Sequence record: MW286157.1
Length of the DNA stretch: 64,000 bases
Origin: Escherichia phage vB_EcoM-BECP11
Strand: one strand, 5' to 3'
The notes beneath the pieces were generated by a model, which had not been told where the DNA came from, did no database searches, and saw only the letters and a list, made by a program, of their open reading frames with translations. The first letter of the stretch is position 1; the number at the start of each line of letters is the position of its first letter. Below, piece after piece: positions 15,161 to 19,847 of the stretch. Position numbers and translations under genes: made by a program.

Positions 15161-16588
15161 GTGGTAGAAATTATTCTTTCTCATCTTATATTTGATCAAG
15201 CTTATTTTTCAAAAGTTTGGCCATATATGGATTCAGAATATTTTGAAAGTGGTCCAGCTAAAAATGCATTCAAATTAATTAAATCTCATGTTAATGAGTA
15301 CCATAGCGTTCCATCTATTAATGCGTTAAATGTTGCATTAGAAAATAGTTCATTTACTGAAACAGAATATTCTGGTGTAAAAACACTTATTTCAAAACTG
15401 GCTGATTCTCCGGAAGACCACAGCTGGTTAGTAAAAGAAACAGAAAAATATGTTCAGCAAAGAGCGATGTTTAATGCTACGTCTAAAATAATCGAAATTC
15501 AAACCAATGCTGAGCTTCCTCCGGAAAAACGAAATAAGAAAATGCCGGATGTTGGTGCTATTCCTGACATCATGCGCCAAGCATTATCAATTTCATTTGA
15601 TAGCTACGTCGGTCATGATTGGATGGATGACTACGAAGCACGCTGGCTATCTTATATGAATAAAGCTCGTAAAGTTCCATTTAAACTTCGTATTTTGAAT
15701 AAAATTACAAAAGGCGGAGCTGAGACTGGAACACTGAACGTTTTAATGGCTGGCGTTAACGTTGGTAAATCATTAGGATTGTGTTCATTAGCAGCAGATT
15801 ATTTACAGCTCGGACATAATGTTCTTTACATTTCCATGGAAATGGCAGAAGAAGTCTGTGCTAAGCGTATTGACGCTAACATGCTTGATGTTTCTCTTGA
15901 TGACATTGATGATGGGCATATTTCTTACGCTGAATATAAAGGAAAAATGGAAAAATGGCGTGAGAAATCTACCCTTGGTCGTTTAATCGTTAAGCAATAT
16001 CCTACTGGTGGAGCAGACGCTAATACATTTCGATCACTTTTAAATGAATTAAAGCTCAAGAAGAATTTTGTTCCAACAATCATTATTGTCGACTATCTAG
16101 GTATTTGTAAATCTTGCCGCATCAGAGTTTATTCAGAAAATAGTTACACAACTGTTAAAGCTATTGCAGAGGAATTGCGTGCTTTGGCTGTTGAAACCGA
16201 AACTGTTCTTTGGACTGCAGCACAGGTTGGTAAACAAGCTTGGGACTCTTCTGATGTTAACATGAGTGATATCGCAGAATCTGCTGGTCTTCCAGCAACA
16301 GCTGATTTTATGCTTGCGGTTATTGAAACCGAGGAGTTAGCAGCTGCTGAACAACAGCTTATTAAGCAAATCAAATCACGATATGGTGATAAGAATAAGT
16401 GGAATAAGTTTTTGATGGGTGTTCAAAAAGGAAATCAAAAATGGGTAGAAATTGAACAAGATTCTACTCCAACTGAAGTGAACGAAGTAGCAGGTTCACA
16501 ACAGATTCAGGCTGAACAGAATCGCTATCAAAGAAATGAATCCACTCGAGCTCAGTTAGATGCTTTGGCAAATGAATTAAAATTTTAG
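15161..16588 (+). CDS. 41: replicative DNA helicase gp41 (DnaB-like)
   Basis: 475 aa, GTG start, Walker A GVNVGKS; matches recalled T4 gp41. Confidence 0.95.
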   Translation: MVEIILSHLIFDQAYFSKVWPYMDSEYFESGPAKNAFKLIKSHVNEYHSVPSINALNVALENSSFTETEYSGVKTLISKLADSPEDHSWLVKETEKYVQQRAMFNATSKIIEIQTNAELPPEKRNKKMPDVGAIPDIMRQALSISFDSYVGHDWMDDYEARWLSYMNKARKVPFKLRILNKITKGGAETGTLNVLMAGVNVGKSLGLCSLAADYLQLGHNVLYISMEMAEEVCAKRIDANMLDVSLDDIDDGHISYAEYKGKMEKWREKSTLGRLIVKQYPTGGADANTFRSLLNELKLKKNFVPTIIIVDYLGICKSCRIRVYSENSYTTVKAIAEELRALAVETETVLWTAAQVGKQAWDSSDVNMSDIAESAGLPATADFMLAVIETEELAAAEQQLIKQIKSRYGDKNKWNKFLMGVQKGNQKWVEIEQDSTPTEVNEVAGSQQIQAEQNRYQRNESTRAQLDALANELKF

Positions 16589-16624
16589 TTTACAAGCTGA
16601 CAAGACTATGGTATAGTAGTCTTG
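16588..16624 (+). promoter_or_regulatory. early promoter (-35 GTTTAC 16588-16593, -10 TATAGT 16612-16617) embedded in 8 bp stem-loop caagacta/tagtcttg
   Basis: inverted repeat 16601-16608 / 16617-16624 flanks the -10 element. Confidence 0.6.
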
Positions 16625-16646
16625 TTGGTTAAATGAGGAGATTGTT

Positions 16647-16829
16647 ATGGAATTGGTAAAAGTAGTTTTTATGGGGTGGTTTAAGAACGAAAGTATGTTT
16701 ACTAAAGAAATCACAATGATGAAAGATGACGTTCAATGGGCTACTACTCAATATGCTGAAGTTAATAAAGCATTAGTTAAAGCTTTCATTGATGACAAGA
16801 AAGTATGCGAAGTGGATTGCCGAGGATAA
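16647..16829 (+). CDS. dmd: Dmd antitoxin-like protein (inhibitor of RnlA/LsoA toxins)
   Basis: 60 aa MELVKVVFMGWFKNES...; matches my recollection of T4 Dmd, adjacent to gene 41. Confidence 0.7.
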   Translation: MELVKVVFMGWFKNESMFTKEITMMKDDVQWATTQYAEVNKALVKAFIDDKKVCEVDCRG

Positions 16830-16830
16830 T

Positions 16831-17088
16831 ATGCATATTGTTTTATTTAAACCTACTCCGTATAACGTCAGGAAAAATACTCAATTCAAAGCACTTATTG
16901 CAGATACGTGGGAATTGGTGCTAGATATTCCAGCAGAAGAAAGTCCTCCATTTGGTCGAGTGGAATTTATTAAGTTTGCTGTACGTCCTACGAAGCGACA
17001 GATTCGTCAGTGTAAAAGGTATTTTCGTAAGATCGTTAAGCTAGAGAAACAGTTTGTAACATGTGATTATGCAGAAGTTTTAAAATAA
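16831..17088 (+). CDS. 61.4-like small basic protein, 85 aa
   Basis: ATG 16831 after SD gagga, 2 nt after dmd stop; basic C-terminus RPTKRQIRQCKRYFRK. Confidence 0.5.
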   Translation: MHIVLFKPTPYNVRKNTQFKALIADTWELVLDIPAEESPPFGRVEFIKFAVRPTKRQIRQCKRYFRKIVKLEKQFVTCDYAEVLK

Positions 17089-17148
17089 CTATTTACTTTT
17101 GTTGGAAATTGATATACTATATAAACATAAACTACTGAGGAGATTATC

Positions 17149-17442
17149 ATGAAAAAATTTATTTTTGCTACAATTTTTACTTTGGCTTCTTGTGCTGCTC
17201 AGCCTGCTATGGCAGGTTATGATAAAGATTTGTGTGAATGGTCTATGACTGCAGATCAGACTGAAGTTGAAACTCAAATTGAAGCGGATATTATGAATAT
17301 CGTTGAGCGTGATCGCCCCAATATGAAAGTTGAAGTACAAAAACAGCTTAAATCAGGTGGTGTGATGCAGTATAATTATGTTCTGTATTGTGACCCTAAT
17401 TTTGATAACAAAAATATCGTAACCGAAATCACAGGTGAATAA
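17149..17442 (+). CDS. sp: Spackle-like periplasmic protein
   Basis: 97 aa with signal peptide MKKFIFATIFTLASCAAQPAMA; size and position match T4 sp (61.3). Confidence 0.65.
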   Translation: MKKFIFATIFTLASCAAQPAMAGYDKDLCEWSMTADQTEVETQIEADIMNIVERDRPNMKVEVQKQLKSGGVMQYNYVLYCDPNFDNKNIVTEITGE

Positions 17443-17443
17443 T

Positions 17444-18082
17444 ATGATTTATTATATGCACAAAAATCCACCGTTTAAATACGGTAAATTTCCTGATGCA
17501 CAATGTTATAATATAACGCCTGATGAAAATAACCGTGGATATCTTATTGGCACAATTTTTGTAATTGTTAAAGATAACGAAATCGTTGCCTGGGCAGATT
17601 TTAAAGGTACAACACATGATGTTAATCCGGTGCCTTTCACATATTACAATATAATGGATTTGGCATATGATTATAATTGGTTTAATCATGACACGTTGGC
17701 TCATATTCATATTGAAGGTGTAGGATTTGACATCTCTTATTCTAGCTACTCATTGTGTCCTATGAGTCGGGCTCATAAAGAACCTGAATATTTTTCATTT
17801 AGGAAACGTGTAAACTTTAAACGCAACACAGAGTATGTCGGTGGAATCTTTGTTAAAGATAATCGAATTATTCGTATTAATTATCCTTTGAGCGTTAGTC
17901 AAAAAGATATTGATGTTGATTTAGATTTCACTGAAAATAATATTAATCATATTGCTTCTGTGTATTTTGGTATCGATCACAAAATTGTAATATGTGGATA
18001 TGAATTACCGTTTGAAGAACAGCCTAAAGTAAAAGTTTCTATTGACGATCAAATTTTTAATGCTTTTATGAATAAAGGTTAA
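17444..18082 (+). CDS. 61.2-like protein, 212 aa
   Basis: ATG 17444 right after sp stop; C-terminal tag SIDDQIFNAFMNKG shared with next gene. Confidence 0.5.
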   Translation: MIYYMHKNPPFKYGKFPDAQCYNITPDENNRGYLIGTIFVIVKDNEIVAWADFKGTTHDVNPVPFTYYNIMDLAYDYNWFNHDTLAHIHIEGVGFDISYSSYSLCPMSRAHKEPEYFSFRKRVNFKRNTEYVGGIFVKDNRIIRINYPLSVSQKDIDVDLDFTENNINHIASVYFGIDHKIVICGYELPFEEQPKVKVSIDDQIFNAFMNKG

Positions 18083-18086
18083 TATG
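18038..18086 (+). repeat. 49 nt module, copy 1 (3' end of 61.2-like gene plus RBS and start of next gene)
   Basis: tctattgacgatcaaatttttaatgcttttatgaataaaggttaatatg; second copy at 18396-18444 with 3 mismatches. Confidence 0.8.
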
Positions 18087-18440
18087 TATAGTTCTGAATT
18101 TTCATATTTAAAAATGGAAAAAATTTCATACGATTTTATAGATGAAAAGGTTTATTACAGTTTCCATGAACCACGTTTTAATAGTGAGGTTGGGTTTATT
18201 GTAGTAAAAGACAATTTCATTTTAAAGATATATTCGGCATTAAAGGATTTTCACTACGAAAATATTAACCTAAAATTTGATAAAGAAAACGTTCGTAATT
18301 GCGCAGTAACAATTACAGGAAATAAAGGCACATGTGTTATGCTATCTGATGAAATTAATGATTTGCTAAATGATGCCGAAAAGGTTGCTATTCCATCTAT
18401 TGATGACCAAATTTTTAATGCTTTTATGAATAGAGGTTAA
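18084..18440 (+). CDS. 61.1-like protein, 118 aa
   Basis: ends with SIDDQIFNAFMNRG, same tag as upstream gene. Confidence 0.5.
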   Translation: MYSSEFSYLKMEKISYDFIDEKVYYSFHEPRFNSEVGFIVVKDNFILKIYSALKDFHYENINLKFDKENVRNCAVTITGNKGTCVMLSDEINDLLNDAEKVAIPSIDDQIFNAFMNRG

Positions 18441-18444
18441 TATG
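18396..18444 (+). repeat. 49 nt module, copy 2
   Basis: tctattgatgaccaaatttttaatgcttttatgaatagaggttaatatg. Confidence 0.8.
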
Positions 18445-18606
18445 AAAACATATAAAGAATTTATTAAAGAAGATATGGTAGCTGGAGATTCAGGTGGTAA
18501 TCCTGAAAATATCTCTACTGGAACAACGTCGGGCGCTGTAGTAAATAAAGGTCCTGAACAGATTCCTAAAAAGAAAAAAGAGGAATCTAAAGAAAAAGAA
18601 GAGTAA
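18442..18606 (+). CDS. 54 aa Lys/Glu-rich peptide
   Basis: ATG 18442 inside repeat copy 2; stop 2 nt before gene 61 ATG; low complexity C-terminus. Confidence 0.35.
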   Translation: MKTYKEFIKEDMVAGDSGGNPENISTGTTSGAVVNKGPEQIPKKKKEESKEKEE

Positions 18607-18608
18607 AA

Positions 18609-19637
18609 ATGTCATCAATACCTTGGATTGATAATGAGTTTGCGTATCGTGCATTAGCTCATTTACCTAAATTCACACAAGTAAATAATAGTTCAACTTT
18701 TAAATTACGGTTTAGATGCCCTGTTTGTGGAGATTCAAAAACCGATCAGAATAAAGCCCGTGGATGGTATTACGGTGATAATAATGAAGGAAATATTCAT
18801 TGTTATAACTGTAACTATCATGCACCAATCGGAATATATTTAAAGGAGTTTGAACCTGATTTATATCGTGAGTATATCTTTGAAATAAGAAAAGAAAAAG
18901 GTAAAAGTCGTCCAGTAGAAAAACCTAAAGAACTTCCTAAACATCCTGAGAAGAAAATAATTAAATCTCTTCCGTCATGTGTTAGATTAGATAAACTGGT
19001 GGAAGACCATCCAATTATAAAATATGTAAAAGCTCGTTGTATTCCAAAGGATAAATGGAAATATCTTTGGTTTACAACCGAATGGCCTAAATTAGTTAAT
19101 AGCATAGCACCGGGAACATACAAAAAGGAAATTTCTGAGCCTCGTCTTGTTATTCCAATTTATAATGCTAATGGAAAAGCCGAGTCGTTTCAAGGGCGTG
19201 CATTAAAGAAAGATGCTCCTCAAAAATATATCACCATCAAAGCTTATCCTGAGGCAACAAAAATATATGGAGTCGAACGAGTTAAAGATGGTGATGTATA
19301 TGTTTTAGAAGGACCTATAGATTCACTTTTTATTGAAAATGGTATAGCTATTACGGGTGGTCAATTAGACCTAGAAGTTGTTCCATTTAAAGATAGGCGT
19401 GTGTGGGTCTTAGATAATGAACCTCGTCATCCTGACACTATTAAGCGAATGACTAAATTAGTTGATGCAGGAGAAAGGGTTATGTTTTGGGATAAATCTC
19501 CCTGGAAATCAAAAGATGTTAATGATATGATTAGAAAGGAAGGTGCAACCCCTGAACAAATTATGGAATATATGAAAAATAATATTGCCCAGGGGTTGAT
19601 GGCTAAAATGCGGTTATCTAAATATGCTAAGATTTAA
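18609..19637 (+). CDS. 61: DNA primase gp61
   Basis: 342 aa; zinc ribbon CPVCGDS...CYNC; Toprim-like core; size equals T4 gp61. Confidence 0.9.
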   Translation: MSSIPWIDNEFAYRALAHLPKFTQVNNSSTFKLRFRCPVCGDSKTDQNKARGWYYGDNNEGNIHCYNCNYHAPIGIYLKEFEPDLYREYIFEIRKEKGKSRPVEKPKELPKHPEKKIIKSLPSCVRLDKLVEDHPIIKYVKARCIPKDKWKYLWFTTEWPKLVNSIAPGTYKKEISEPRLVIPIYNANGKAESFQGRALKKDAPQKYITIKAYPEATKIYGVERVKDGDVYVLEGPIDSLFIENGIAITGGQLDLEVVPFKDRRVWVLDNEPRHPDTIKRMTKLVDAGERVMFWDKSPWKSKDVNDMIRKEGATPEQIMEYMKNNIAQGLMAKMRLSKYAKI

Positions 19638-19834
19638 ATTAACCCAACTAAAGCAAATGCTAAATCTACAAATGTATCAAGAGTAACTACTGGAATATTA
19701 ACACCATGTGCAATTGCAATTGGTGATAAAATAAAGTTCCAGAGTAAAATTCCTACCATAGCAGAAATAGTAAAAGCTATACGTTTCTTATTACCTTTGA
19801 TGGCATTAACAAGTGCCATTAATTTTTGTACCAT
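19634..19834 (-). CDS. 66 aa predicted membrane protein, antisense to flanking early genes
   Basis: strong SD aaggagg 4 nt before ATG on minus strand; two hydrophobic segments; convergent with gene 61. Confidence 0.35.
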   Translation of the reverse strand: MVQKLMALVNAIKGNKKRIAFTISAMVGILLWNFILSPIAIAHGVNIPVVTLDTFVDLAFALVGLI

Positions 19835-19847
19835 ATGTCCTCCTTAT

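Follow-up and report, generated by a model that had tools for sequence, protein, structure and literature searches.

The region between genes 41 and 61 of Escherichia phage vB_EcoM-BECP11: a very probable anti-toxin island with two genes of unassigned function

Genes and promoters between helicase and primase

The region between the genes for the replicative helicase (gene 41) and the primase (gene 61) was analyzed in a 64,000-nucleotide (nt) stretch of Escherichia phage vB_EcoM-BECP11 (record MW286157.1), hereafter the window. The phage is a Tequatrovirus, with ∼98% nucleotide identity to its best matches, the phages ESh31, R5505, AR1, and wV7. An earlier note, made from the sequence alone, had placed an anti-defence island of five small early genes at 16588-18608; the bounds agree with gene products gp41, ending at 16588, and gp61, starting at 18609, but the number of genes is six, including adfA, ORF118, and 61.1 (Table 1). 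All six are tightly packed on the plus strand in the order dmd, 61.4/tifA, sp, 61.2/adfA, a 118-amino-acid (aa) open reading frame (ORF118), and 61.1, with neighboring genes linked via TAATATG-type stop/start junctions, and the annotated AR1 record contains the identical set. Dmd, TifA, AdfA, and Spackle have been experimentally characterized in T4 or RB69, and the island is already published; only ORF118, a half-size relative of adfA, and 61.1 lack an assigned function. The observations that go beyond the literature consulted concern these two, namely the paralogy of ORF118 with AdfA together with a 49-nt repeat, and the capsid-targeting-like start of gp61.1, from which the functions proposed below for both genes are inferred.

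Table 1. Positions of the genes, promoter-like elements, and repeats between genes 41 and 61, with the two flanking genes.
Feature	Position	Strand	Evidence or remark
Gene 41, replicative helicase, left flank	15161..16588	+	475 aa, 99.8% identical to T4 gp41
Early promoter-like element, TTTACA-17-TATAGT with TG before the -10	16589..16617	+	10/12 match in consensus scan
15-bp hairpin overlapping promoter spacer and -10	16595..16630	+	-18.9 kcal/mol, z -3.81
dmd (61.5), predicted antitoxin mimic inhibiting RnlA/LsoA	16647..16829	+	Pfam, PDB, T4 identity
tifA (61.4), predicted RNA-binding inhibitor of ToxN	16831..17088	+	Pfam DUF7279, T4 identity
Promoter-like stretch before sp, ATTTAC...TACTAT	17091..17127	+	Read from sequence; below consensus-scan threshold
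sp (61.3), Spackle, predicted periplasmic inhibitor of gp5 tail lysozyme	17149..17442	+	Pfam, PDB
adfA (61.2), anti-DarT factor A, two beta-meander/helix domains	17444..18082	+	Pfam PF23813
49-nt repeat, copy 1	18038..18086	+	
ORF118, single-domain paralogue of AdfA C-terminal domain	18084..18440	+	Pfam, PHROG, hhalign
49-nt repeat, copy 2	18396..18444	+	
61.1, 54 aa	18442..18606	+	phrog_1823; hhalign to gp23; 17 homologues aligned
Gene 61, primase, right flank	18609..19637	+	342 aa, 97.7-99.1% identical to T2 and AR1 gp61

For the six proteins, the PHROG assignments agree with those of Pfam, and NCBIfam gave no match to any of them. The first two genes correspond closely to their T4 counterparts. 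The 60-aa protein previously described as a Dmd-like antitoxin mimic matches Pfam PF17587 from end to end (residues 1-60 on profile positions 1-60; 156.9 bits, cut-off 27; E-value 1.6e-46) and PDB entry 5hy3_B (“Antitoxin Dmd”; E 1.8e-37), and all 60 of its 60 residues are identical to those of T4 Dmd; residue for residue, it is T4 Dmd itself, which is more than “Dmd-like.” By that identity it would bind and block the RNase toxins RnlA and LsoA. The start codon of tifA lies one base past the dmd stop codon, and its 85-aa product, correctly singled out as basic (pI 9.8), is TifA: it matches DUF7279 (PF23945; 72.7 bits against a cut-off of 24.5, E 2.3e-20) and is identical to T4 TifA at 84 of 85 residues (98.8%); a PDB sequence search gave no match. 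Gene 61.4 was renamed tifA by Srikant et al. (PMC9391042), its product inhibiting the ToxN toxin of ToxIN. In the work of Guegler et al. (PMC10853763), TifA was shown to bind both ToxN and RNA, trapping ToxN on cellular RNA, with a central basic cluster (K55, R56, and R59 in RB69 numbering) needed for RNA binding; this cluster is kept in the same register in the window protein (RPTKRQIRQ), which probably acts on ToxN in the manner of its homologues.

The 97-aa protein described as Spackle-like and periplasmic belongs to the T4_Spackle family (PF25676; residues 1-96, 151.7 bits, E 8.7e-45). It is 89.7% identical to T4 Sp, matches PDB entry 6x6o (E 4.7e-57), and begins with a signal peptide, a hydrophobic leader ending in ...PAMA; in the crystal structure 7cn6, the mature chain begins with residue 23. 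Spackle would thus be exported to the periplasm, where it is predicted to inhibit the gp5 lysozyme of superinfecting phage. In T2, a one-base insertion near the 3′ end of sp alters the last residues (…NKNNHR, 92 aa); this frameshift (T2 locus L003, 2440-2500) could be real or a sequencing error.

AdfA matches Pfam PF23813 over its full length (profile positions 1-211; 451.9 bits, E 3.2e-136) and is 73.2% identical to T4 AdfA; no match was obtained in a PDB sequence search. A single R164H change lets RB69 AdfA bind and neutralize DarT1 (PMC11257639), and His169 of the window protein aligns with RB69 R164, that is, with the DarT1-neutralizing histidine of RB69 R164H; with this allele, the window copy is predicted to bind DarT1. 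The protein is a mosaic, RB69/AR1-like in its N-terminal half and T4-like in its C-terminal half; across residues 1-105, T4-type records reach only ∼60% identity (tblastn), and the N-terminal half was found in 486 records that fall into two allele classes. In an AlphaFold2 (AF2) model with a predicted local distance difference test (pLDDT) score of 68, the same order of secondary-structure elements appears twice over. Profile-profile comparison of the N-terminal half with the C-terminal half or ORF118 did not reach significance (P about 0.003, probability 11-12%), and an internal tandem duplication within AdfA thus lacks significant sequence evidence. At 17702-17713, adfA contains a 6-nt tandem duplication (CATATT twice) that adds His-Ile (AHIHIEG vs. 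AHIEG) relative to AR1, T4, and RB69. The AdfA of phage ESh31 is identical to the window protein in its N-terminal half.

The earlier note had placed all of the island genes behind a stem-loop promoter. The early promoter-like element and its overlapping hairpin are real, but they directly precede dmd-tifA only, and other promoter-like sites follow. The promoter-like element is identical in T4, T2, and AR1, with the same 30 nt annotated as a promoter in phage Lutter, and the early T4 promoter upstream of dmd is known to drive dmd-tifA (PMC9391042). Together, promoter and hairpin are almost invariant in T4, T2, and AR1, where two variant positions preserve pairing, and none of 200 shuffled sequences folded as well. 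Since the promoter’s own transcript would begin within the 3′ arm of the hairpin, folding should be confined to DNA or to RNA reading through from gene 41; the hairpin could act in the processing, stability, or attenuation of the upstream message. The arrangement resembles the PeSL composites of T4-type phages, in which an early promoter plus stem-loop borders a variable region, and which Comeau, Arbiol, and Krisch tied to modular shuffling (PMC4122927); the PeSL consensus for the PST/T4 pair is TTTACW-N17-TAYWAT, to which the island element (TTTACA-N17-TATAGT) fits in its -35 and spacing, and in its -10 at five of six positions.

Further downstream, the 60-nt gap ahead of sp contains a second promoter-like stretch as well as a late-like TATAAACA at 17120-17127; in phage Lutter, the corresponding stretch bears two annotated promoters, and a promoter downstream of tifA is mentioned by Srikant et al. 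(PMC9391042). No intrinsic terminators were found in the island, and an Rfam search at a permissive threshold returned a single chance-level match, inside gene 41. These elements suggest two expression units, the first yielding Dmd and TifA from the early promoter with its overlapping hairpin, and the second yielding Spackle, AdfA, ORF118, gp61.1, and primase. T4 omics data place dmd, 61.4, sp, and 61.2 in the early class by RNA as well as by protein, and 61.1 in that class by RNA; the description of the window genes as early holds by homology to these orthologues.

ORF118 and the 49-nt repeat

ORF118 is elsewhere labelled only as hypothetical (ar1_036, RB32ORF033c), and the T2 record calls its equivalent “61.2.” It belongs to phrog_4122 (E 6.7e-73) and matches the Pfam AdfA profile weakly (34.1 bits, E 2.3e-8) at positions 113-211 only; correspondingly, its identity to AdfA residues 113-212 is 37%, and the ORF118 family profile aligns to the C-terminal half of AdfA with 98.6% probability (hhalign, E 5e-16) but to the N-terminal half with a probability of only 11%. 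Judged by these profile matches, ORF118 is a single-domain relative and no orthologue of AdfA, whose two-domain architecture it does not have. The two proteins have in common the C-terminal domain and an invariant DDQIFNAFMN(K/R)G tail, whereas AdfA has two domains and His or Arg at the specificity residue, and ORF118 has one domain and Asn at that residue. The AF2 model of ORF118 (pLDDT 84) consists of a five-stranded meander sheet followed by helices; structural comparison of this fold gave no informative neighbor, and a PDB sequence search gave no match. An exhaustive profile search of 1.84 billion representatives returned only ten matches to the ORF118 family, every one a protein or fragment from a T4-like phage. 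ORF118 would represent a single beta-meander/helix domain of the type that makes up the C-terminal AdfA half, which bears the specificity residue.

The two copies of the 49-nt repeat, identical at 46 of 49 positions, end adfA and ORF118, respectively: in copy 1, the adfA tail SIDDQIFNAFMNKG and its stop codon run into the start of ORF118, and in copy 2, the ORF118 tail SIDDQIFNAFMNRG and its stop codon run into the start of 61.1. Each encodes SIDDQIFNAFMN(K/R)G followed by stop and start codons, and the tail of ORF118 includes DDQIFNAFMNRG. Each also contains a Mot-box-like TGCTTTT-12-TAATAT stretch, starting at 18061 in copy 1 and at 18419 in copy 2; no other occurs in the island, and the annotation of phage Lutter lists both as promoters. 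The copy adjoining 61.1 is identical in AR1 and identical to the single copy of T4 and T2. At the protein level, the tail is invariant even in distant single-domain members and recurs in a 144-aa Gaprivervirus protein otherwise unlike the family, which argues for constraint on the tail at the protein level. This 144-aa protein, encoded in phage P896 (L007, 3062-3496) at the place of adfA, has the C-terminal ...VDDQIFNAFMKRD tail alone in common with the family. The repeat may be regarded as a composite of a protein tail, a middle promoter for the downstream genes including primase, a ribosome-binding site, and a start codon, and comparison among genomes suggests that it could serve as a fixed recombination seam for the gain and loss of adfA-type and ORF118-type cassettes. 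In this respect the repeats resemble the cassette-exchange seams of PeSL/PmSL cassettes (Arbiol 2010; Comeau 2014, PMC4122927), but they sit in coding sequence and are without a stem-loop.

ORF118 was found intact in 332 phage records, so that about half of the sequenced relatives carry it, often in place of adfA. Both genes occur together in 157 records (those covering at least 80% of a query spanning the two), and an evenly spaced sample of rows gives estimates of ∼300 records with adfA alone and ∼140 with ORF118 alone; every combination exists in the sample, including both genes with either adfA allele. The ratio of nonsynonymous to synonymous substitution rates (dN/dS) is 0.19-0.30 across ORF118 homologues that are 74-94% identical and 0.21 against a Gaprivervirus homologue that is 46% identical, the same range as in dmd, tifA, sp, and adfA; ORF118 is thus a real coding gene under purifying selection. 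Partial duplication of adfA followed by decay would make ORF118 a leftover with no function of its own, and its coverage of the AdfA profile in the C-terminal half only, the near-identity of its 49-nt tail to that of adfA, and its absence from T4 all fit such an origin. We nevertheless hold this to be very improbable: apart from the purifying selection just described and the ∼140 records in which ORF118 is intact without adfA, the body of the protein is just 37% identical to the C-terminal half of AdfA, which implies an old split, and the predicted fold is confident.

Phage T2 bears on both the origin and the function of the gene. T2 was described as having no adfA homologue (PMC11257639) and carries only an ORF118-type gene; 13 nt left over from the adfA tail, located between sp and that gene, indicate that the T2 arrangement arose through deletion of adfA. 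Upon deletion of adfN, T2 becomes sensitive to DarTG1 (PMC11257639), as a functionless leftover would also predict, and ORF118 hence probably does not block that DarT1 at native expression. ORF118 is most likely a stoichiometric binder of some other toxin.

Similarity of gp61.1 to capsid proteins

The 54-aa product of 61.1 is 96.3% identical to T4 gp61.1 and is encoded in all six annotated relatives that were compared, with a dN/dS of 0.12. A Pfam search with gp61.1 gave no match; a PDB search gave a weak match to the T4 major capsid protein gp23, and some gp61.1 homologues are already labelled “major capsid domain-containing protein” in public databases. An alignment of 17 gp61.1 homologues matched gp23 residues 56-98 (hhalign, 95.5%, E 1.4e-8), a segment that spans the final ten residues of the propeptide, which is removed by cleavage, and the start of mature gp23*; gp61.1 residues 11-43 correspond to gp23 residues 66-98, which come right behind the gp21 cleavage site. 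Three parts can thus be distinguished, a capsid-targeting-like N-terminus, a segment resembling the N-terminus of gp23*, and a Lys/Glu-rich tail.

The first part resembles the start of the T4 internal proteins (IPs). IPII and IPIII begin with MKTYQEFIAE and the window gp61.1 with MKTYKEFIKE (8 of 10 residues identical), and IPI begins with MKTFKEF, as does T4 gp61.1 (MKTFKEFIKE). The first ten residues of IPIII are a capsid targeting sequence, in which residues 4 and 7 determine targeting and residues 8 and 10 processing (PMC9026906); gp61.1 has Y4, F7, I8, and E10, that is, all four determinants. An invariant DMVAGD is directly preceded by [ILM]-x-E in 17 of 17 homologues and in the long form of RB69. 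Unlike IPI, IPII, and IPIII, gp61.1 is only 54 aa long and is encoded within an early replication-gene cluster.

These likenesses suggest that gp61.1 joins a capsid targeting sequence of the internal-protein type and a gp21-type cleavage motif to a segment that mimics the start of mature gp23*. If so, gp21 would cut gp61.1 after Glu10 and leave a 44-residue gp23* mimic with a Lys/Glu-rich tail, and this peptide might be packaged and injected with the DNA to act either as an immediate, IPI*-like counter-defence or as a decoy for capsid-sensing immunity. Several observations speak against a place in the capsid: T4 gp61.1 was undetected in the infected-cell proteome, the RNA is classed as early, and the exact late promoter TATAAATA is absent from the island. 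These observations, together with the different and longer N-terminus without MKTY of the RB69 homologue, favor a recombination relic of gene 23 or an ip gene that is neither packaged nor processed, and we give such a relic an even chance. On the other side, genuine ip genes are likewise classed as early RNA in the same T4 dataset, and the relic would have to have kept the four mapped targeting and processing determinants, the [ILM]-x-E motif of all homologues, and a dN/dS of 0.12. The capsid reading of gp61.1 is offered as a lead rather than a result; in the literature searched, no report of gp61.1 in virions and no paper discussing its function was found.

The gp61.1 family comprises a short form of 51-62 aa with the MKTY leader and longer forms such as that of RB69 (L005, 2318-2596; 92 aa), which have the same conserved core and differing N-terminal extensions; a PHROG profile of 156 positions matches at its C-terminus only. 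Mimicry of the Lit-activating Gol peptide by gp61.1 was also considered and was dropped as unsupported; the Gol segment of gp23 is located downstream of the aligned residues 56-98.

Variation among related phages and interpretation of the island

The 2.4 kb around the island match 664 phage records, nearly all from Escherichia, Shigella, or Yersinia Tequatroviruses, and the same arrangement is seen in these as well as in the annotated genomes of T4, T2, AR1, RB69, Pinarejo, and P896. The T4 island (dmd-tifA-sp-adfA-61.1) has the same place, order, early promoter, and hairpin as that of the window but is without ORF118, which the window adds between adfA and 61.1. The gene content of the gap differs between T4, T2, AR1, RB69, and P896, as the earlier expectation of a counter-defence hotspot implied: T4 and T2 each have five genes, ORF118 replacing adfA in the latter; the eleven genes of RB69 include imm, imm.1, and several ORFans; and the Gaprivervirus P896 has nine, its tifA homologue having moved downstream. 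In both RB69 and P896, extra ORFs are inserted at the promoter/hairpin border.

We conclude that the locus is very probably an accessory anti-toxin-antitoxin (anti-TA) island of a Tequatrovirus, expressed early after infection. Three of the four characterized genes neutralize TA toxins, and Srikant et al. proposed that the region “may be an anti-TA island,” its other genes being “attractive anti-toxin candidates” (PMC9391042). The suggestion in the earlier note that uncharacterized members inhibit TA or abortive-infection systems has been borne out in the literature for TifA against ToxN (PMC9391042) and for AdfA against DarT1 (PMC11257639). The island thus represents the standard T-even countermeasures against TA systems, with the His allele of AdfA at the R164H position, and is nothing new in itself; ORF118 and gp61.1 are the remaining unassigned genes in a proven counter-defence locus where further antitoxins were predicted (PMC9391042).

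Four considerations weigh against this conclusion. The functions of the island genes are transferred by homology from T4 and RB69, on the basis of 73-100% identity and conserved key residues. The island promoters are consensus matches or predictions of other authors. Spackle acts in superinfection exclusion and is no counter-defence protein, so that “anti-defence island” overstates the uniformity of the locus. Finally, T4 AdfA had no detectable role against the DarTG1 tested, for which AdfN (gp30.3) is the main factor (PMC11257639), and T2, with the ORF118-type gene alone, is sensitive to it without adfN; an action of either protein on that DarT1 at native expression is thus doubtful.

Alternatively, the gap may be a general hyperplastic region in which early accessory genes are shuffled via promoter/stem-loop cassettes; anti-toxin genes would then be only a part of the cargo, and ORF118 and 61.1 would serve unrelated ends, for instance in the assembly of heads or in superinfection exclusion. 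Spackle targets superinfecting phage, imm and imm.1 lie in this gap in RB69, gp61.1 appears head-related, a PeSL-like promoter/hairpin of the kind reported to mark shuffling-prone regions stands at the left edge of the island, and gene content varies in every phage compared. The preponderance of toxin-neutralizing genes among the characterized members and the homology of ORF118 to the toxin-binding half of AdfA are harder to accommodate, and we consider this alternative possible but rather unlikely. It is unlikely that both proposals for the unassigned genes hold jointly, namely that gp61.1 is a previously unrecognized capsid-targeted peptide and that ORF118 neutralizes a toxin different from the DarT1 examined to date.

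Several smaller features accompany the region. The TifA homologue of P896 (L007, 3859-4080; 73 aa, 39% identity) lies downstream of the ORF118 homologue, apart from dmd. Directly upstream of dmd, RB69 (L005, 5153-5470) and P896 (L007, 2185-2502) encode a 105-aa protein (MKTIDCKAE.K..YHGSSS...) that is 85% identical between the two and is absent from the window. Two minus-strand ORFs of 83 and 93 aa in the region overlap strongly supported plus-strand genes and were rejected as spurious. Beyond the island, a conserved minus-strand ORF of 66 aa (19634-19837) shares 4 nt with the 3′ end of the primase gene; a 201-nt hypothetical gene is annotated at this place in AR1 (ar1_033), Pinarejo, and Lutter, and the hydrophobic product is probably a small membrane protein.

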